Source of the DNA: Candidatus Hydrogenedentota bacterium | GTDB lineage: Bacteria; Hydrogenedentota; Hydrogenedentia; Hydrogenedentales; SLHB01 | Reading direction: 5' to 3' | Length of the DNA: 64,000 nucleotides | NCBI GenBank assembly: GCA_963745075.1 | Contig: CAVUWV010000001.1 | Location: forward strand, 192,001-256,000 | Shown here: in pieces, positions 38,196-52,726 of the stretch | How the letters are laid out: every line of letters starts with the position of its first letter | How positions within the stretch are numbered: position 1 is the first letter of the stretch | Made by a program: the position numbers and the translations under genes | Notes under the pieces: model-generated | The model's input: the letters and a program-made list of their open reading frames with translations, nothing else | The model's database searches: none | What the model was told of the DNA's origin: nothing

Positions 38196-39160
38196 TCGTC
38201 ATCCTCCTCGTCCCGTCGAAGTTCTTCCTCGTCCCACGGGGTGAGTTCCCAATCCTCTTCGTCTGTGAGGGCGTCCTCCTTCTCCTCATCCTCTTCCCAC
38301 TGTTGGAGGGTTGCCCGCCCTTTCCGCCGTTTTCGCACGTAGGCCATGATGGTGAGGATCGCCATGATCTGGAATACCGAGAATCCTGACACAAGAGAAA
38401 AGATCAGGGCAACTTTCCAGAGCGACCGAACCCACGCATTGTAGAAGTCCAGGGGCGAGATCGACGCCTCGGCCCGGAGCGCGTCGCCGAACGTTTCGGT
38501 CTTCGTGGCATAAACGACCCGCCAGAATGCGTCGTCACCCAATTCGTTCATCAGGAACCGGGTCATCGATAAAGCTTGGGCGTACGCGTCGCCGAATTCG
38601 GTCTCCTTGCCCGGCTCCAGGAACACGAAGAACATGTCGCGGTAGGGGATGAGCCGCCCCTGCACGTACATCTCACCGACTCTGAGGCTGCTGCCGATCC
38701 GATGCTCGCCGGACACGACCATGGCGATGCCTTCGTTCAGCCAGCGGGGAAGGTTGCCGCTGCCCGAGTTGCGCGCGAGGAGCACATGAATCAACTCATG
38801 GCGCAACGTGCCCTTGTAGTCTGCGCCACCCTCGACGAGGTTCGGTGTCTTTACAACAATGACGCCCTTTTCGGGGAGGGCGATTCCGGTCACGGAGGTC
38901 TGGCTTAGGCTGCCGGCATACCGCGCGAATTCGCCGTGCGTCTCGCAGATGACGACCTGGATCGGCGCATCCCCCGCGGGCAAACGGTCCCGGAAATCGC
39001 TCAGGCTCGTTTGGAGAACACTCAGGCTCGCTTCGGCGAGTTTACGGCGATCCTGCGGGTAGACCACGTGAAACGGCGCCGCGTCGATTACGTCTGCAAA
39101 CGCCGCAAGACACACGAGGACAGCCGGCAGCACGAGGGCGACTACGCGGTGAAAGCGCAT
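38186..39160 (-). CDS. Peptidase MA-like (gluzincin) membrane-anchored metallopeptidase
   Basis: Signal peptide, LRHELIH...PRWLNEGIA, AYAQA. C-terminal TM segment followed by a basic patch and an acidic tail. Confidence 0.85.
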   Translation of the reverse strand: MRFHRVVALVLPAVLVCLAAFADVIDAAPFHVVYPQDRRKLAEASLSVLQTSLSDFRDRLPAGDAPIQVVICETHGEFARYAGSLSQTSVTGIALPEKGVIVVKTPNLVEGGADYKGTLRHELIHVLLARNSGSGNLPRWLNEGIAMVVSGEHRIGSSLRVGEMYVQGRLIPYRDMFFVFLEPGKETEFGDAYAQALSMTRFLMNELGDDAFWRVVYATKTETFGDALRAEASISPLDFYNAWVRSLWKVALIFSLVSGFSVFQIMAILTIMAYVRKRRKGRATLQQWEEDEEKEDALTDEEDWELTPWDEEELRRDEEDDEWW

Positions 39161-42100
39161 CAGGCTGTGCCGTCGCCCGTCGTGTCCGTGACGAGCCTGG
39201 AACGGAGTTCCTCCAGGGTCGTATGGACCGGTGACTCGGAGATGTCCACTTCGCGCATCCAGTCCTCCGATGAGTCATCCAGGTACAGCAGGATACCGCG
39301 TGCGGGCGACGCGCCCCGCAACTGTCGTATCGCCGCTGCGTACAACTGGAGTTGCCGCTCGTACCGTGCGTGTTTTTCCAGCGTGTAGTGGCCCGTCTTG
39401 TAGTCGACGATGACCGCGTCATCGAGCAGCAGGTCGATGGTTCCTTTCACAAGTCGGTCGCCGATTCGGAGTGCAAAGGGGGTTTCTTTGCGAACCGATT
39501 TGCCCTTGTCGATCATGTTGCCCAGGTTTGATTTGCGGATGCGATCTGCAAGCGCGCCAAGTTCCCGATCGAGCGTGTTGCGCATCTCCCGTAACGGGCA
39601 TTCCGCGAGAAGAAATTCGCGGATCGTCTCGGAGGGCTCTGAGCGTAGATCCCAGAATTCCAGGAACCGGTGAATTAAGGTGCCGCGTAACGCGGGATCC
39701 CTTCCGTCAGGCACAAACGACGGCGCCCGATTCGGCTCGAACTCGCCCTCGCGCTCGTCGAAAGCGTGCAGAGCCACGGTGACGGCAACCGATCGGCGTG
39801 GCGTTTCGGCGGGAGCAATTGCAGCCGTGCGCTGTCCGATGATGGCGCGATCCGGCGCGTCACTATCAGCTTCGGTGTCGGAAGGCGAAGGAACGCTCCC
39901 CGGCTTGCGGCGTACCCGGACGCGCCATCCGTCGCCCGCTATCTCTGCTCCGTTTTGCCGGTCGTACAAGCTGTAGACGTCGTTGAACGCGCATAGCCAC
40001 TGCGTTTCCTTCGTCGCATTGGGTGGACCGCACAATAGCAGATAGTCCCGCGCACGGGTCATCGCGACGTACAACACCCGCGCTTGTTCTGCGAGTTCTT
40101 CGGTATTGCGCGTTTGCGAGATAGCCTGGAACACCGGTGGCGTAGCGCGGTCGCCAGAGTCGTCCGTTACCTTGACGGCAACGCCCATCGTCCGGTGATG
40201 GGCGAGCGACGTGCGGTTACTCCCTTGCACCGCGCGGCCCATATCCGCCACAGCGACGATAGGGAATTCCAGTCCTTTGGATTTGTGGACCGTCATCACG
40301 GTCACCACATTGCCCGCGTCCGCTCCCGATTCCGCTTCGCCTTCGCGAATCGCCGTGGTTGCAACGTCGGTCAGATACCGTACGAACGAACTGAGCGTTG
40401 CGTTTTGGGTGCGCGCAAATGAGGCGGCAAGGTCCGCGACCTTTCGCAGATTCATCGCGCGTTGTACGCCGAGGAATTGTCCCAGCACGACGGCTTCGAG
40501 TGCGGTTCGGTCCAACACGACGTGAATGTAGGCGCCCAATGGCATGTCGCGGAACGCGCGTAATTCCGCGAAAAGTCCGCGACCGCGCGTCAGCCGTTCG
40601 TTCTGCGCCGGATCGGAAATCGAAATGTCGCCATAAAACGCCGCGGCGAGCCCCTCGGTGCGCCGGGGAAACCCGCTCAGTTCCACGAGGGCGTCGTCCG
40701 AGAGGCCGATGATTGGGCTTCGCAGGACCGCCAGTAAGGCCATCTCATTCCAGGGATCGACCAGCACGGAAAGAAGATTTCGAAGATCGACTACCTCTTG
40801 GCGTTCGTAGAATCCGACACCGGCAACAACCGAGTACGGTACCCCGGCTTCTCGCAACGCGCGCTCGTAACGGTACACGTCGCTGAACGATCGCAAGAGA
40901 ATGGCCACGTCGCCAAATTCAGCGTCACGACGGCGGTTCTGCGGGGGATCGTAGACTTGCGTCGGCGTCGGTCCCGCGCACATTTCGAGGAGCCGCGTCG
41001 CCAGCAGTTTGGCTTCCGCGTCGCGATAGTCCGGGGCCCTCGCTTCATCGACGGTCTCGGGGATGAGAAACTCGACGTGACAGTCTCCTTGCGCTTCGCG
41101 GTGCCAGTCCATCGGCCCGTAGGGGTCCTCCACCGCGTAAGAGGAGCCTCGACTTTGTAAAGAAGTCATTCACAAACGTGAGAACATCCGGGAGTGACCG
41201 GAAGTTCTTGTCCATGCGAACCACCTCGTCCGCAGATTCCCGGGCGGACCGGAACACGTCCACTTCGGCGCCCCGGAAATAGTAAATGGACTGCTTGGCA
41301 TCGCCCACGATGAAGAGTTGCGGACCGCCCGGGACACCGGACAGCAGCCGCGCAATTTCAAGTTGCACCGAATCGGTGTCCTGGAACTCGTCGATAAGCA
41401 GGTATTTGATCGATCGCGCCACGCGCGCGCGAACGGAGCCGTCGCCTCGTTCGTCATCACGCAACACCTGAAGCGTTTGCGCGATGAGGTCTTCGAAATC
41501 GTATGCGTTGCGGCGCTGCTTGGCTTCGTCAAGGTTTTCGACCGTGCGTCGATAGACCGTAAGCAGATCGACAGTCAGTTCCGCCGCGCGCGTCAAAAGT
41601 CCCGGATCGACCATGGCAATTTGACGCTTGGCGATTGCGTCTTTTGTCGATTTCAGTAGGTCCCGGACCGAGTCGAAGGCGTCGTGGGATGCCCACTTCT
41701 TTTTGCTGCCTCCAAGGGCATTCAATGCGGAGATGCCGCCCAACGCGCAAACGCGTTCGTGGTTGTCTTGCGCCTGAATGGCCCGTTCCATTTCGCTGAG
41801 CAGCGCGCGACGCATCACTTCGCGCTTGTCGTCGGGATCGGCGCATTGACCCGCCAGCTCAACCAGTTCGCGGACCGCGTTCACGAATAGCGGCGAACTG
41901 ACAAGTTCAGCGTTTTGACGTTCCACGTGCGCATCGACGACGCGGGACCAATCGTTGAGCAACGCGTGCGGTTCGGAAACGTCGTGATTCTCGGCAATCC
42001 GTGCGATCGCGCCGCGATCGCTCAGCATCGCGCGAAGCACATCGACGAGTTCGGCGCGCCGGAACTCGATTGCCAGGCGGAAAGCGGAGGCGTCATCCGA

Positions 42101-42541
42101 CTCCAGCAGTTCGTGCAGGGTCAGTTCAATCACCTCGACCCGCAACAGGAAGGACTCCGGTTCCGTGAGAATACCGAACTCCGGATCCTTCCCTAAGCTC
42201 AGCGCGTGCTCTTTGAGAAGCCCCATGCAAAACGCGTGGATGGTCGAAATCCGCGCGGACTCCAGTCGCCGTTCGATGTGCCGCCAGAAGTTCAGTAGTT
42301 GCGGGTCGTCCTCGGGAGCTTTCTTCCTGCACTCGGATCGCAGGCGTTCCTTCATTTCGGCCGCGGCTTTGTCGGTAAACGTGATGGCCACGATTTGATC
42401 GAGTGTGGCGTGACGTTGTTCGAGCAAATACAGGATGCGCTCGACCAGTACGCTGGTCTTGCCGGAACCCGCTCCGGCGTCCACGCACAGGCTCTTGTCG
42501 TAGGTTTCGATGGCGGTGCGTTGTTCGTCGGTGCGGGTCAT
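39160..42541 (-). CDS. addA: AddA-type UvrD helicase-nuclease, +1 frameshift near 41140
   Basis: AGAGSGKT, AITFTDKAAAEMKER, STIHAF, LIDEFQDT, VGDAKQSIY.FRGA, NFRS. The next frame has MTVHKSKGLEF, LYVAMTRARD and nuclease RGTLIH...GTID...DYKT. Confidence 0.93.
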
Positions 42542-45839: not shown

Positions 45840-47523
45840 TTAGTTCAAGTCGTCGGCGTTTCGGATTTCGTAGCGATACCCCTGCTCGGTGAGAAAGAGC
45901 TGCCGCTTGACGCTGTAATCCTGGTCGCAGGTGTCGCGCGATACGAGCGAGTAAAAGCGCGCGATGGTCCCATCGCTTTTGGGACGCAGAATCCGGCCCA
46001 GTCGCTGAGCCTCTTCCTGGCGCGAGCCAAAGGTCCCCGATACTTGAATTGCCACGTTCGCGTCCGGCAGGTCGATGGCGAAGTTGGCGACCTTCGATAC
46101 GATCATCAGCTTGCATTCGCCGCTGCGAAACCTCGCGTAGAGTTCCTCGCGCTTTTTGTTCGCCGTCTGCCCGGTGATGATGGGCGCCTTGAAATGTTTC
46201 GCAAGCACTTTCAGTTGGTCCAGGTACTGGCCGATAATCAGCACGTTGTCGTTCTTATGGTGTTTGACCAGCATTTCGCAGACGCTCGTTTTCACCGGAT
46301 TGGTGGAAGCGATTCGGAACTTGCCGCGCTTGTCAGCGATAGCGTACCGGTACCGCTCGTCCTGCGGCAGGGGAGCGCGCACTTCCGTGCAAAGCGCTTG
46401 TGCGATCCAGCCTTGTTTCTCCAATACCTTCCACGGCACGTCGTACTTCTTCGGTCCGATAAGGCTGAACACGTCGTCTTCACGCGCGTCTTCACGCACC
46501 AGCGTGGCGGTCAGACCCAGTCTGCGGCGCGCCTGCAAGGCGGCCGTCGCGCGAAACACCGGCGCCGGCAGCAGGTGCACCTCATCATAAACGATGAGTC
46601 CCCAGTTGCCCTCGTCAAAAAGGCTGAAGTGAACGAAAGGACTGTCCTTGGTCTTCCGGTAGGTCAACACCTGGTAGGTGGCGAAGGTGACCGGCCGAAT
46701 CTCTTTCGAGTCCCCGCTGTATTCGCCGCATTTTTCCTCGGCGATCGTCGTCTTATCCAGCAGTTCGCTTTTCCACTGGCGCAGCGCAACCGTGTTGGTT
46801 GTCAGGACCAGGGTTTGGGTTTGCAGCCGTTCGATGGCCGCGATGCCAACGACCGTCTTTCCCGCGCCGCACGGCAAGACGACGACCCCGCTGCCGCCCT
46901 GGTTTGAACCGCCGGCATAAAACGCATCGACCGACTCCCGCTGGTACTTGCGCAGCGAGAACGGCGCGCCGGAGAGGGTGGTGTCTCGGAAATTCAGTTC
47001 GAGCGGGGCGCCTTCAACATACCCAGCCAAGTCTTCGACCGGGAACCCGATTTTGATCAGGATGCTCTTCACGTTGCCCCGGTCCGCGGGATTGACAAAG
47101 ATGCGATGCCCGTCCGGAGACCCCGCCACGTACGGTTTGAGATCCTTCTGATTCAGTAACTGTGTGATGAGCAGGCTGTCTTCGGAATGCAGGACCAAAT
47201 CCCCGCCGGCATCCTGCTTGTACAGCTTGAGCCGGCCATACCGGGCGACGTTGTCTTCGATATCGACAATAACGTTTTCGGGGATTTCATAACGGCTGAA
47301 CGCCTTCAGGTGGTCGATGATCTCGTCGGCCGTCATGCCCGCCGCGGCGGCATTCCAAAGGGAAAGCGGGGTAAGCCTGATACGTATGAATGTGCTCGGG
47401 AGATTTGACCAGTTCCGCGAAGGCCGCGATGCTGTCGCGGGCGTCTTCGAATTTGGGACCATCCGTCTCAAGCAGAATGGATCGGTCGGACTGTACGATA
47501 ATCGGCCTATTTTCGTTACTCAT
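45840..47523 (-). CDS. xpb: XPB/Rad25-like SF2 DNA helicase, +1 frameshift near 47380
   Basis: PIIVQSDRSILLE...FAELVKSPEHIHTY, then RLTPLSLWNA, LRKYQ, VLPCGAGKT, DEVHLLPA, LGLTATLVRED, SRQEEAQRLGRILRPK. Confidence 0.93.
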
Positions 47524-47795: not shown

Positions 47796-47835
47796 AAAAA
47801 TGAAAAGGGCGCCACCGCAGTGCGCGGTAACGCCC
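47796..47835 (-). terminator. Rho-independent terminator of the nfeD-floA operon
   Basis: Minus strand reads GGGCGTTACCGC-gcact-GCGGTGGCGCCC followed by TTTTCATTTTT, about 20 nt after the last stop. Confidence 0.8.
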
Positions 47836-47857
47836 TCTTGATTGGTTTGGGCAAGTG

Positions 47858-48574
47858 TTACTCGAACGCCTTCGGGGGCCCCAGGATCTCGCGCATGATG
47901 ACCGCCCGGCGCAGATCGCTCCTGTCTTCAAAGAAGCGGGCGCCCGCATGTCTCGCATAGCGCTGCCGTTTCGGCAATGGCGCGACTGGAACAGGCGGTT
48001 TCTTCGGGACCCGCCTACGCGTTTGTTGCGGCGGCGCAACCGGAGGGGGGACCTCTCGGTGAGGCGTCTTCCGATGTTGCGGTTGCTGGCGCATCGGGGG
48101 CGCCTTCCGGTGCTGTTCCTGCGCGAGACGCCGCTGCTCTTCTTGGGGCCGGAACTGTGCTTGTTCCTGCGCCGGCCGTTCCTGCTGAGTTGCCGGCGTT
48201 CGTCGCGGTGGAGCGCGATGTACCGGTGGCGGGGTTGCCTGCCTTGCCGTTGATTGGCGCGGTGCTACCGGCGGCGGCACGGCCCGCCGAGGCTGTCCCT
48301 GCCGCGGTTGTGCCGTCGGGACATGAGGCTCCCGGCGCTGTGCAATGACGACCGGCGGTTCGCCGTCCTCGGAGTGCGTGCGCGGCCGCGCGGTGGGAAT
48401 CGTGTCACCGTACAACATGCGTCGCGTCGCCTCCGGCAGATCCTCGGGCTTCTGACGCCCCGTCTGCTGTTGGCGGCCCGTGATGTCCTTCTGCTCCGCG
48501 ACTTTGCGCGCGATAGCGACGACGATGAACACCACGAACACAAGGAGGCCAACGAGATCTCCGAAGCTATCCAT
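47858..48574 (-). CDS. Membrane-anchored low-complexity protein downstream of floA (YqfB-like position)
   Basis: N-terminal TM segment, long Pro/Gln/Arg-rich linker and C-terminal DLRRAVIMREILGPPKA motif. Confidence 0.7.
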   Translation of the reverse strand: MDSFGDLVGLLVFVVFIVVAIARKVAEQKDITGRQQQTGRQKPEDLPEATRRMLYGDTIPTARPRTHSEDGEPPVVIAQRREPHVPTAQPRQGQPRRAVPPPVAPRQSTARQATPPPVHRAPPRRTPATQQERPAQEQAQFRPQEEQRRLAQEQHRKAPPMRQQPQHRKTPHREVPPPVAPPQQTRRRVPKKPPVPVAPLPKRQRYARHAGARFFEDRSDLRRAVIMREILGPPKAFE

Positions 48575-48593: not shown

Positions 48594-49622
48594 TTACGTG
48601 TGCGGTCCGGACTGGTCGTCCTCGCTACGGCCTTCCGTCTTCGAGATGGACTCCCGCATGCTCGTGTCCGCCATCACGTTCTTCATCTTGTAATAGTCCA
48701 TGATGCCGAGGTTGCCGCTGCGGAATGCCTCGGCCATGGCACGCGGCACTTCGGCCTCGGCCTCGACCACCCGGGCGCGCATCTCGATAACCTGCGCGCG
48801 CATCTCCTGTTCGCGGGCATAAGCCATGGCGCGCCGCTCCTCGGCCCGGGCCTGGGCGATCTGCTTGTCGGCCTCGGCCTGCGAAATCTGGAGTTGCGCG
48901 CCGATGTTCTCACCCACGTCCACATCCGCGATATCGATGGACAAGATTTCAAATGCCGTTCCCGCATCCAGTCCGCGTTGCAGCACCACCTTCGAAATAC
49001 GGTCCGGATTCTCGAGCACCTGTTTGTGCGTCGACGACGAACCGATGGTCGTCACGATACCTTCTCCGACGCGCGCGATGATCGTTTCCTCGGTTGCGCC
49101 ACCAACCAGGCTGTTAATGTTGGTCCGCACCGTTACGCGGGCCTTGGCCTTCAACTGAATCCCGTCCATGGCCACGGCGGCCACCGTGGGCTGTCCCTGA
49201 CGAGGGTCCGGGCAATCAATAACCTTCGGATTGACCGAGGTCTGTACCGCGTCGAGAATGTCGCGGCCCGCCAGGTCGATGGCCGTGGCACGCTGGAAAT
49301 TCAGGTCGATATTGGCTTTGCTCGCCGCGATCAGCGCCTGCACCACGCGCACCACGTTGCCGCCGGCCAGATAGTGGGCTTCCAATTCGTTCGTCGAGAT
49401 GTGGAGACCGGCTTTCACCGCATTGATGCGACTTTCCACGATGATCGCTGGATTGACCTTTCGCAGCCGCATCGCCACCAGACTCAACAGGCTGACGCGG
49501 GCTCCCGAAAGCAAGGCCTGAATGTACAATTTGAAGAAGGTCAGAACAATTACGAGGAAAATCAGAATGACAATCGCTGCTGCTACGCCAAGAATCGCGT
49601 AAAAAGGCCCTAATCCACTCAT
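48594..49622 (-). CDS. floA: Flotillin-like protein FloA (YqfA/SPFH-like)
   Basis: [84 protein letters not shown]. Confidence 0.96.
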
Positions 49623-49636
49623 TGCCGTATCCTTTC

Positions 49637-50257
49637 CTAATCCGCGGCTGCCTGCACCACGACCATGTTATCTTTTGTTCCAATTACGCTAACGGTAGCA
49701 CCTTTCGGCAGGTAACCGCCAATAGCAACCGCACTCACGAGCGTATCACCGATGGAAACCAGTCCCGGTGGTCCCACAGCCTGGACGACTTCGGCGGTTT
49801 GACCGATGCACGCCGCTGCCGTTTCGGGTGTTGCCTGGTCGGCCGCTTCTCGAAGACCGGCCTCTTTCGCGTGAATCAAGTCCTGCACCGTCTTCACAAC
49901 GTCACGGCCGGACAAGTCGAACGCGGCGGCGATGCGAAAGGGCAGGTCCACGTCCGCCTTCCGGGCGGCCGCCGCAGCGACCATGACACGATTGATGTTC
50001 CCTCCGGCAAGCACGTGCGACTCGATTCCGTCCAAGGGCGCATTCACGCCGGTCCTCTTCGCGACGATATACACATTAACGATCGCGCCGAGGTCCAACC
50101 TCCGCATGGCCATCCCGCACATCCGCCACCATCCGACGGGGGCCCCGCCCAACCGGGCGCGAAGCCACGGACCGAAGACGGTGAACACCATGACACCAAG
50201 TGCAAACAGCGCAAGCGAACCCAGGAGAATAGACGCTATCACGATGACATTCGGCAT
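49637..50257 (-). CDS. Chimeric protein: FloA N-terminal region fused to an NfeD C-terminal OB-fold
   Basis: [14 protein letters not shown]...[25 protein letters not shown] aligns with the adjacent FloA. The C-terminal [20 protein letters not shown]...[22 protein letters not shown] aligns with both NfeD C-termini. Confidence 0.8.
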
Positions 50258-50276: not shown

Positions 50277-50756
50277 TCAGCTTTTTGCCGCTTCTTCGAC
50301 AACCACGCGGTTGCCGCGCACCTCAATCACACGCACGGCAGTACCGCGCACGATGTACTCGCCGCTCGAGACGGCGTTCGTGCGTATGCCATTGAGCATG
50401 ACCGTCCCCGCCGGACGCAGGTCGGTGAAGACTTCGCCGAGCGCTCCAATCAGTTTGGCGTCGGAGACATCCGAGACCCAACCCGCGTCTTGCGGCTGGT
50501 CTTGCGTAAGGATCATCGCCTTGCCGACGATCGATCGCGGGAAGAAGTAGAACCCCAGTCCAATGGCCACGGTGGCCGCGATCCCCTCGCCAAAGATTAC
50601 CAGCAGCCCGTGCTGCGGAAACGTATAGAGCGCGAAACCGCAACTGACGACGAGAAAGACGCCCCCGAGAATTCCGCAGACCAATCCCGGCAGGATAAAC
50701 TCCGCGAGAATCAGAATGATGCCGGCTACGAAGAAGAACGCGATCCACCAGATCAT
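50277..50756 (-). CDS. nfeD: Short NfeD family protein
   Basis: TM region LILAEFILPG, plus OB-fold LIGALGEVFTDLRPAG...GEYIVRGTAVRVIEVRGNRVVV. Confidence 0.9.
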   Translation of the reverse strand: MIWWIAFFFVAGIILILAEFILPGLVCGILGGVFLVVSCGFALYTFPQHGLLVIFGEGIAATVAIGLGFYFFPRSIVGKAMILTQDQPQDAGWVSDVSDAKLIGALGEVFTDLRPAGTVMLNGIRTNAVSSGEYIVRGTAVRVIEVRGNRVVVEEAAKS

Positions 50757-51052
50757 TTCTTCTGCTCCTCCGCGGATTCGAGAAGCGTGAGGAGCTGCCC
50801 GATCTCCAGCCGTATACTCTGGCTGACCTTCATCTTGTCGGCGGGATCTTTGGGATCGGTCTCTTCAATTTCGTCAAAGGTGCCGATCAGGCCGTCTGCT
50901 TCCGGAAACAGTCGCCGGGCTTGTTCCAGAAGCTTGTTGTAACGCCGGGCCATGGGCGTGCAACTGTAGTAGCCGGCGCCTTGCTGCTGAATCACATGCA
51001 TCTCTTCCCGCAACCCCTTCAGCATATGAATCAATGACGTGCGAACATCCAT
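50753..51052 (-). CDS. Hypothetical 99-aa helical cytoplasmic protein
   Basis: RBS ggagga; ATGA overlap with the short nfeD; no recognisable motif. Confidence 0.7.
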   Translation of the reverse strand: MDVRTSLIHMLKGLREEMHVIQQQGAGYYSCTPMARRYNKLLEQARRLFPEADGLIGTFDEIEETDPKDPADKMKVSQSIRLEIGQLLTLLESAEEQKK

Positions 51053-51082: not shown

Positions 51083-52726
51083 TCAGGGTTTTTCTTTCAG
51101 CCGGTCGACGACGTACCGGTTGCCTTCCACTTCAACGATTTCGATCGGTGTGCCTTCCTCGATAAACTCCGCGCGACTCACGACCTGAAACGTCTTATCG
51201 CCAAAACGTCCGCGCCCCGCGGGACGCAACATGCTGGTCGCGACACCCTTCAACCCGATCGATGAAGTACGGTCCCGAACCGACTGGACGGAATAACCGT
51301 CGGTCGCGTGCTGGGCGTGGGCCAGCACCAACCGCCCGTATATTGGGGTACGCGGAAATACCTTCCAGAAGATTACGCTCAAAACCACAAAACCAACGGT
51401 CGTCAGCGTGACGGTTTTCCCCGCATCTCGCAGGCGATCGAAACTCCACGAATACTCCGGGAACGAGAATTCGGAGAAGGTAAAGGACAAATAGAGCCCG
51501 GCAAGCAGGGATAGGATCCCCAGCACTCCGCAGATCCCGAAACCCGGCAACACGAAGGCTTCAATCGCGATGAGGATCAACCCCGCCAGTACGAGCAACA
51601 AGTCGATCCAGTCCGCAAGCCCGATGACGCTGCGCGCACCAAAGAACAAGGCCAACGCCACAATGCCGACTATGCCCGGCAAGCCGAATCCGGGCGTTCG
51701 GATTTCAAGGTAAATCCCCCCGAGCCCTAAGATTAACAAGAGGCTTGACACTTCGGGGCTGGTCAGCCAGCGAAACAACTCTTCCGACCACGTCAGTTCG
51801 AGGGTTACTTGGCGTGCGTTTTCCAGACCCTCCCCGCGGATCAGATTATCCAACGTCCGGTACTCCCCTTTGGCCAAGCGATACTTGATGGCCTCGTCCG
51901 GCGTCAGCGTCAGGAGCTTATCCGGTCCCACGACGATATGGGCGCCTTCCATCCCCGACGCGATTGCCGCTTGGACGGCCTGTTCACCCTTGCTCGGGCC
52001 GGACTCTTTGGTACTGCTCAAGCCCTTGAGGAAGTCCTTCAATGGTCCCAGATCGAGATTGGTGTTCTCCTCGAGCTTCTGGACGATGCCTTCCAACGCG
52101 GATGCGCCGCTTCCGGCGCTGCCGGACTGACCCGCGTTGGTGGCGTAAACGTCGAACGTTCCATCTCCGCGTGGAATGGCAATGAGTTCAATGTCCTTGT
52201 CCACCATCGCCATGCCGATATCGGGATTGTGTCCCTTCTCTTCCCCCAACGCCGCAATCTTCGAGCGGAGAAAGGAGGTCTCCTTTTCCCCGGCCGGCGT
52301 GACGCCTTCGCCCGTCATGCGCACGACTTGCGACGCGCCGATATTGCTCGCCGGCGCCATGAAGATCTCGTCGCAAGAATAGCTGATGATTGCCCCCGCC
52401 GAGATGGCCCCCATCCCCTTGATATAGGCGATGGTCTTGCACGGCGCGTTCAGGATGGATTTCGTAATCTCGATAGCCGAATCCAGCCGGCCGCCCGGCG
52501 TATCGATGATGAAGATGATCGCCTCGGCGTTCCGGGCTTCGGAGATCGCGCGATTCACGAGGACCAGAATACCGTCGTCGATCATCGTCCCCTGTTCGGT
52601 GACGATGGGACAGATCACAATATAGGGTTGGTCGCCGGTGGGGCTGTCGGGCTGCTGGGCGATTGCACTAAACGCCAGCATCATCGACACGCAAATCGCT
52701 GCTACCATTCGGACCATCGATCGCAT
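51083..52726 (-). CDS. nfeD: Long NfeD (YqeZ-like) membrane-bound ClpP-class serine protease
   Basis: Signal peptide, IDTPGG, AISAGA (catalytic Ser), NIGAS, EKETS (Lys), LLTLT, EIRTPGFG TM block and C-terminal LRPAG OB-fold. Start approximate. Confidence 0.9.
   Translation of the reverse strand: MRSMVRMVAAICVSMMLAFSAIAQQPDSPTGDQPYIVICPIVTEQGTMIDDGILVLVNRAISEARNAEAIIFIIDTPGGRLDSAIEITKSILNAPCKTIAYIKGMGAISAGAIISYSCDEIFMAPASNIGASQVVRMTGEGVTPAGEKETSFLRSKIAALGEEKGHNPDIGMAMVDKDIELIAIPRGDGTFDVYATNAGQSGSAGSGASALEGIVQKLEENTNLDLGPLKDFLKGLSSTKESGPSKGEQAVQAAIASGMEGAHIVVGPDKLLTLTPDEAIKYRLAKGEYRTLDNLIRGEGLENARQVTLELTWSEELFRWLTSPEVSSLLLILGLGGIYLEIRTPGFGLPGIVGIVALALFFGARSVIGLADWIDLLLVLAGLILIAIEAFVLPGFGICGVLGILSLLAGLYLSFTFSEFSFPEYSWSFDRLRDAGKTVTLTTVGFVVLSVIFWKVFPRTPIYGRLVLAHAQHATDGYSVQSVRDRTSSIGLKGVATSMLRPAGRGRFGDKTFQVVSRAEFIEEGTPIEIVEVEGNRYVVDRLKEKP

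Follow-up and report, generated by a model that had tools for sequence, protein, structure and literature searches.

The window considered here, a stretch of 64,000 nucleotides, carries on its minus strand a group of genes in the order long nfeD, a gene for a 99-residue protein, short nfeD, a chimeric FloA–NfeD gene (hereafter the fusion), floA and a gene for a Pro/Gln/Arg-rich protein (Table 1), with 19 nt between short nfeD and the fusion and 14 nt between the fusion and floA. The homologs carry the source name Ca. Hydrogenedentes, and by homolog names the phylum is Ca. Hydrogenedentota. The protein encoded after floA is presumably 'yqfB-like', a label that is positional. Counts of promoter and terminator motifs around the operon are not above those in shuffled sequence. 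The 99-residue protein is conserved at its place between long and short nfeD in nearly all Hydrogenedentota loci examined; it has no Pfam hit and no match in the Planctomycetota loci, and its ESM Atlas clusters are unnamed. Elsewhere on the same strand of the window, an XPB/Rad25-type helicase gene (xpb, 45840-47523) is split over two frames near 47,385, probably by an assembly indel, and an AddA-like helicase-nuclease gene (addA, 39160-42541) is broken near 41,100, giving two ORFs that overlap, the adjoining addB being intact; two frameshifts within 7 kb suggest indel errors in the assembly.

Table 1. Genes of the nfeD–floA operon and elements of the fusion protein, with window positions.
Feature	Position	Strand	Basis
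Long NfeD (NfeD1b N-domain, membrane domain, OB)	51083..52726	-	Pfam
Conserved 99-aa protein, no recognised family	50753..51052	-	Pfam search, locus comparison
Short NfeD, likely OB donor	50277..50756	-	Pfam, BLASTP, OB profile scores
Chimeric FloA–NfeD gene, 206 aa (FloA membrane helix and subdomain 1, then NfeD OB)	49637..50257	-	Pfam, BLASTP, AF2
Fusion: N-terminal helix, residues 2-36, with predicted single membrane segment	50150..50254	-	AF2; hydropathy 2.1-2.5 over first 30 residues
Fusion: FloA-type PHB subdomain 1 (S1), six short helices, residues 43-131, ending at FloA S1/S2 boundary	49865..50131	-	BLASTP, AF2
Fusion: junction, residues 132-147; lengthens last S1 helix, replaces NfeD pre-OB linker	49817..49864	-	AF2, alignment
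Fusion: NfeD-type OB barrel, residues 148-203, nearest short NfeD	49649..49816	-	Pfam, fold match, profile scores
Fusion: VGPPG loop in place of LRPxG (conserved Arg gone)	49763..49777	-	Alignment
Fusion: Tyr182, aligned with aromatic of FloA-binding 'V1' loop of S. aureus NfeD	49712..49714	-	Mapped by eye to the published supplement alignment, as available
Full-length floA, donor of membrane helix and S1	48594..49622	-	Pfam; NF010186 540.7 bits (cut-off 393); AF2
Pro/Gln/Arg-rich membrane-anchored protein after floA	47858..48574	-	No family match
Terminator-like hairpin past last gene	47803..47839	-	Consensus match; counts not above shuffles

The reading frame of the fusion is intact and contains no internal stop. 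An upstream TTG start, giving 229 aa in the ORF listing, was rejected, as 7 of 7 aligned homologs share the same initial Met. Both halves of the protein pass their Pfam cut-offs: the FloA model (positions 8-124 of 314) matches residues 16-131 with 87.3 bits (cut-off 34), and the NfeD model matches residues 148-201 with 39.8 bits (cut-off 29.1). An earlier note on this DNA had described the first 130 or so residues as FloA-like, and in BLASTP the fusion indeed matches the neighbouring FloA at 39% over residues 22-131 (E 6e-23), with both motif pairs quoted there inside the alignment. The OB region is closer to that of short NfeD (37%, E 3e-7) than to that of long NfeD (21%, E 0.06). In shuffle controls the top of 200 shuffles reached 21.9 bits against FloA, compared with 81.6 for the real sequence, and the top of 194 matching shuffles reached 21.2 bits against short NfeD, compared with 34.3. 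The fusion is well diverged from its surroundings, as the earlier note had held: blastn found no DNA similarity to the three neighbours better than E 0.068, which rules out a fresh duplication, and misassembly is ruled out because the same gene occupies the same slot in 12 other genomes.

The AlphaFold2 model of the fusion (28-row alignment, mean pLDDT 91.9, pTM 0.75) opens with a long helix at the N-terminus (2-36), after which come six helices (43-140), a short helical linker and a set of five strands (154-203). The barrel formed by the strands matches the NfeD OB structure 3wwv with Z 12.2 and rmsd 1.6 over 63 aligned residues, followed by 3cp0, 2k5h, 2k14, 2exd and YbbJ, in keeping with the earlier assignment of an NfeD OB-fold, and the change of LRPAG to VGPPG reported with it is confirmed by alignment. 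The model of the neighbouring FloA begins similarly, with a helix at 5-38 and six helices at 45-130, and continues into a mixed domain (133-239), identified as the SPFH core by its match to 8gn9 (Z 12.4, rmsd 2.0, model residues 129-237), and then into a coiled coil (240-331). The FloA homology of the fusion ends at FloA K133, where the first FloA strand after S1 begins, such that the break falls at the FloA S1/S2 domain boundary and, as had been proposed, the similarity stops at the FloA core. Subdomain 2, i.e. the SPFH core, is absent, residues 148-203 forming the OB instead, and the protein ends after the OB with no counterpart of the FloA coiled coil (H240-331). The fusion, lacking SPFH core and coiled coil, is therefore not a flotillin; it scores 92 bits on the FloA equivalog NCBIfam NF010186, failing the cut-off of 393. 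Neither is the membrane part that of an NfeD, in that the NfeD integral membrane domain PF24961 gives no match in the fusion at E up to 1 (short NfeD 0.028, long NfeD 5.8e-28). An N-terminal ClpP-like domain is likewise not present in the fusion, the long nfeD gene being the only one in this operon to encode one. Sequence matches to ABC-ATPase, RLI and P-glycoprotein chains were dismissed as due to a short 'GG..RV..AAA' look-alike, and fold matches between S1 and repeats of the designed-helical or TALE-like type (Z up to 7.7) as reflecting only a shared arrangement.

Such fusions are labelled in databases only as 'flotillin-like FloA family protein', FloA (YqfA; PF12127, NF010186) itself being placed in the SPFH5 group in the available part of PMC2636767. 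The fusion shares with FloA the N-terminal membrane helix, the six-helix S1 and location in an nfeD–floA operon, but has an OB in place of the SPFH core and coiled coil. With short NfeDs (PF01957; E. coli YbbJ, 8z5g; B. subtilis YuaF, 2k14; S. aureus NfeD) it shares similar size, membrane anchoring, a C-terminal five-stranded OB, the V1-loop aromatic and a gene position directly before an SPFH gene. By contrast with these, its anchor is the single FloA helix plus S1, rather than the NfeD membrane domain, the LRPxG and β5 arginines are missing, and the NfeD linker is replaced. The nearest ESM Atlas cluster, automatically named 'FloA/NfeD-like C-terminal', has the same architecture and 65 members (FloA 100%, NfeD 69%), mostly from Ca. 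Hydrogenedentota, its commonest taxon; it is probably the fusion's own family, and carries no description.

The interfaces considered here are those of the S. aureus FloA–NfeD clamp, as presented in the available part of PMC11222466. There, FloA and NfeD bind directly, as evidenced by pull-down, two-hybrid and cryo-EM at about 8 Å. S1 helices 1-2 of FloA are needed for staphyloxanthin binding and microdomain localisation; dimerisation is via PHB–PHB contacts, cross-linked near strands β2/β3 in subdomain 2, and multimerisation is via the coiled coil. The NfeD OB grips the FloA coiled coil by its β3–β4 loop (variant V1, GNF), and OB–OB contacts link FloA dimers, variant V2 being a charged segment before β1 and not the LRP motif; our V1/V2 assignment follows the legend of the supplement, the alignment layout of which is not preserved. 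The same two domain types thus act together in both systems, with the difference that the S. aureus OB binds a coiled coil in trans, whereas in the fusion the OB is tied in cis to S1 and there is no coiled coil. A sequence search of the PDB yielded no close match to FloA, and the FloA–NfeD map is at about 8 Å. The direct FloA–NfeD interaction implied in the earlier note is real, but it is not new, having been published for S. aureus, and the 'Rosetta stone' inference consequently adds little. Its further proposal, of an adaptor or chain-terminating subunit that co-assembles with FloA, finds no support in that form: the fusion is without subdomain 2 and coiled coil, and since the dimerising, multimerising and OB-binding parts of FloA are thereby missing, the published interfaces provide no structural basis for co-assembly of a truncated ring subunit. 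A capping or modulating role is plausible on our analysis, if exerted via the OB rather than via FloA-type self-assembly.

FloA was found in 123 of the 135 genomes of the phylum, and the full fusion in 13, all of one family (13/54) and spread over 7 genera; 12 of the 13 were in the search profile, but Pfam had found them first, and there was no further full-length match. In all 13 carriers the gene lies between short nfeD and floA and encodes an intact protein of 202-217 aa, without internal stops, which keeps a complete OB with clade-specific conserved residues (26-67% identity to the query). In a FloA tree of 39 rows, from which G106 was left out as identical to G105, the 12 carriers fall in one clade (SH-aLRT 96), within which four non-carriers are nested (G104, G099, G082 and G092; 87-96% complete), with three genomes undetermined. 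Parsimony on this tree requires a minimum of five changes, which we read as one gain and about four losses within a single Hydrogenedentota clade. In G092 the slot is an 850-nt gap with an unrelated ORF (L069:4170-5014), flanked by repeat-like AT-rich stretches.

The fusion gene is under purifying selection, evolves faster than its neighbours and is dispensable. For the unsaturated pair G107–G105 the Nei–Gojobori dN/dS is 0.17 (S1 0.12, OB 0.31), compared with 0.047 for short NfeD; pairs with the genome G000, for which dS is above 1, give 0.15-0.16, compared with 0.038 for FloA and 0.08-0.09 for short NfeD. Overall, dN/dS of the fusion is about 0.15-0.18, in a comparison of orthologs such as the earlier note had proposed, and the gene changes at roughly 2-4 times the rate of floA and short nfeD. 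The fast evolution and the long tree branches, the losses inside the carrier clade, which include the close relatives G104 and G099, and absence from 122 of the 135 genomes are features expected if the gene were a remnant of duplication in slow decay, without a function of its own, and kept only weakly, e.g. because this avoids toxicity from a misfolded membrane product or polarity on floA. We regard this as improbable, given the intact length over 7 genera, the low dN/dS and the repeated origin and retention of the architecture in other lineages.

The evidence for repeated origin is as follows. Among 50%-identity representatives of homologs, the best 150 of 1649 hits include 26 S1+OB proteins, 83 S1-only proteins (a count that may include cut FloA fragments), 4 tandem S1 proteins and 1 S1+S2+OB protein. 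An S1 tree was built from 35 rows selected out of 94. In it a single clade (91) unites the 8 Hydrogenedentota family-f1 fusions sampled, the fusion P0039 groups with a family-f10 FloA, and P0025 and P0158 join four FloAs, of which three carry the source name Planctomycetota. A single origin of all fusions was rejected on S1 (p-AU 0.002, with 16 fusions held together against 19 other rows). In a quick tree of all 94 rows the Hydrogenedentota fusions are split, with weak support and long branches. The OB points in the same direction: in 12 of 12 genome-derived rows the family-f1 OB scores higher on the short-NfeD than on the long-NfeD profile of its own phylum, while for 11 of 11 P0025-type rows the highest score is on the long-NfeD profile of Planctomycetota. 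The query OB itself scores 36.7 on the latter, marginally above 34.6 on the Hydrogenedentota short-NfeD profile. The split in the S1 tree could also result from gene conversion between a fusion and the floA of its own locus, but the OB donors differ too. Because one clade is rejected and the donors differ, this domain arrangement has originated independently in other lineages.

Loci outside the carrier clade bear on the same point. In the Phycisphaerae class (401 genomes, 7 candidates scored per genome), one full-length fusion was present among the matches listed (150 of 318), in G365, with the order long nfeD, short nfeD, S1+OB, floA; of the five other genomes of the class with two matches, G182 and G346 have an S1-only gene in the slot. 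S1-only genes also occupy the slot in 10 family-f7 loci and in G064, and an extra OB gene does so in L114 and L212. The slot rule is not universal, since in L203 the ORF after a long-NfeD-type fusion is not floA but, from motifs recognised by eye, that of a DEAD-box-type helicase. A contig search with A5 returned ordinary floA in 80 of 80 loci among the matches listed, with no fusion, and in the class-level search with A5 (401 genomes, 7 candidates scored per genome) 0 of 16 matches were full-length; in a metagenome scan one locus of 4 was a fusion locus.

Since genes with S1 alone also take up this slot, selection may be acting on something other than the OB. It can be argued that the membrane helix and S1 are the working part, acting as a lipid-binding filler or regulator of FloA domains, with the OB a folded passenger from the duplication junction. 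The excess of S1-only over S1+OB representatives, the stronger constraint on S1 than on the OB, and a lone 112-aa S1 gene in the same genome are in agreement with such a role. We nevertheless think it rather unlikely: the OB is complete in every carrier of the clade, with its own conserved residues, and its dN/dS is well below 1.

With respect to how the chimera formed, plain read-through of adjacent genes would give the order NfeD–FloA, the reverse of that in the fusion. Judging from gene order and domain composition, its most likely source is a tandem-duplication junction, in which a duplicated stretch that begins in the OB-coding 3' end of nfeD and ends in the S1-coding 5' end of floA would yield the arrangement nfeD, S1::OB, floA. 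This model explains why the domain order is reversed, where the gene lies and why the OB comes from short NfeD, as well as the variants with S1 alone or an extra OB and the recurrence of the architecture. Gene adjacency thereby explains the birth of the fusion without any interaction between FloA and NfeD; it is retention that needs explaining.

The LRPxG arginine is present in 214 of 221 distinct segments of stand-alone NfeD OBs from these operons (64/65, 36/36, 63/66 and 51/54), compared with 3 of 45 fusions (0/20 family-f1, 0/11 P0025-type, 3/14 others), these counts including related sequences that are not independent; it has apparently been lost more than once. At positions at least 85% conserved in the parent, the hydrophobic and glycine residues of the core persist in family-f1 fusions (mostly 16-20 of 20), but these fusions have lost T159 (kept in 2/20), R162 (0/20), A164 (0/20), V194 (4/20) and R198 (0/20); the parent OB has T159 in 63/65, R162 in 64/65 and R198 in 63/65. 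The long-NfeD-derived fusions have largely lost only positions 151 and 162, with G196 kept in 6/11. New conserved residues have appeared in the family-f1 fusions, i.e. P164 (19/20), G181 (20/20), K185 (18/20) and N197 (17/20). An aromatic residue is present at 182 in 16/20 family-f1, 9/11 P0025-type and 5/14 other fusions, the last being the most distant; the V1 glycine is kept in only 11/20 family-f1 fusions, and the segment equivalent to V2 is replaced by the junction. A new point is that the fused OB retains its core, together with the aromatic published as binding FloA, and has dropped the LRPxG arginine.

One explanation for these losses is that the Arg162/Arg198 face normally docks on the membrane-proximal S1 of FloA, such that covalent joining of the domains makes the face redundant and it is lost; the fusion would then be a true Rosetta protein, a pre-assembled S1–OB unit inserted between FloA subunits via S1–S1 contacts as a spacer or terminator, much as the earlier note had imagined. 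The absence of R162 from separately derived fusions, and the fact that, of the strongly conserved positions, the long-NfeD-derived lineage has mostly given up just this and one other, would fit, as would the continued conservation of the S1 motifs and the pTM of the fusion model. The proposal as a whole is nonetheless unlikely. The available part of PMC11222466 puts OB binding on the coiled coil of FloA and the dimer contact in S2, and reports no S1–S1 contacts; relaxed selection likewise strips surface residues first.

The reading to which we incline, though at a little under an even chance, is that the fusion is a chimera of S1 and the short-NfeD OB, likely a product of the tandem-duplication junction, that likely serves as an optional third NfeD-like accessory, reaching FloA microdomains and binding FloA without bridging it. 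The fusion would be co-expressed with the operon; its S1 would bring it to the lipid domains of FloA, as S1 helices 1-2 do in S. aureus, and its OB would dock on the FloA coiled coil through the retained aromatic loop. With the NfeD linker and the Thr159/Arg162/Arg198 surface lost, it would make no OB–OB bridge, and so would dilute NfeD and limit or reshape FloA–NfeD multimers. Each of these functional steps is an extrapolation from the S. aureus proteins, whose interfaces were mapped at about 8 Å.

A wider reading, which we consider possible but doubtful, is that independent S1–OB chimeras dropping the same arginine reveal which face of NfeD docks on FloA or bridges it, that they constitute an undescribed class of built-in regulators of flotillin-scaffold size, and that S1 is a free-standing microdomain-targeting module. 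The main interest lies in the repeated origin and the repeatedly dropped residue: a chimera that evolved several times, in each case with its break at a domain boundary, and lost the same surface residue yields a cheap and specific prediction concerning the LRP arginine, and FloA S1 is shown to be a mobile module. The interest is limited in that the interaction is known, the gene is rare and dispensable, and the hosts are apparently known mainly from metagenome assemblies. The statement in the earlier note that it knew of no described example stands so far as our literature search extended: it found no description of a FloA–NfeD fusion and no paper joining Hydrogenedentota and flotillin, and the available parts of PMC2636767, PMC4208085 and PMC13086221 do not mention such a fusion; subscription literature, beyond the scope of the search, may bear on novelty.

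Other S1 and OB proteins were observed in the course of this work. In the same genome (G000) the lone 112-aa FloA-S1 gene (L003:1462-1800, +, contig C17; Pfam FloA 41 bits) lies far from the operon, upstream of a sigma-54-like ORF (named by eye), and a similar gene is present in G104. The genome also encodes a fourth NfeD-OB protein of 195 aa (L005:1087-1674, +, contig C8), with no floA nearby in that locus. The two deepest-branching genomes of the phylum, G002 and G001, have S1 proteins of 231-233 aa with an unrecognised C-terminal part, located off the floA operon (L037:4577-5272 and L038:4464-5165). Two architectures were each sighted once and could be artefacts: an S1+S2+OB chimera cut at the S2/coiled-coil boundary (P0147), and a short NfeD read through into S1 (P0165). 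In P0070, P0041, P0021 and P0049, FloA-like proteins of up to 668-790 aa, the helical repeats of S1 are expanded or doubled, which suggests that S1 is a repeat module of variable length.
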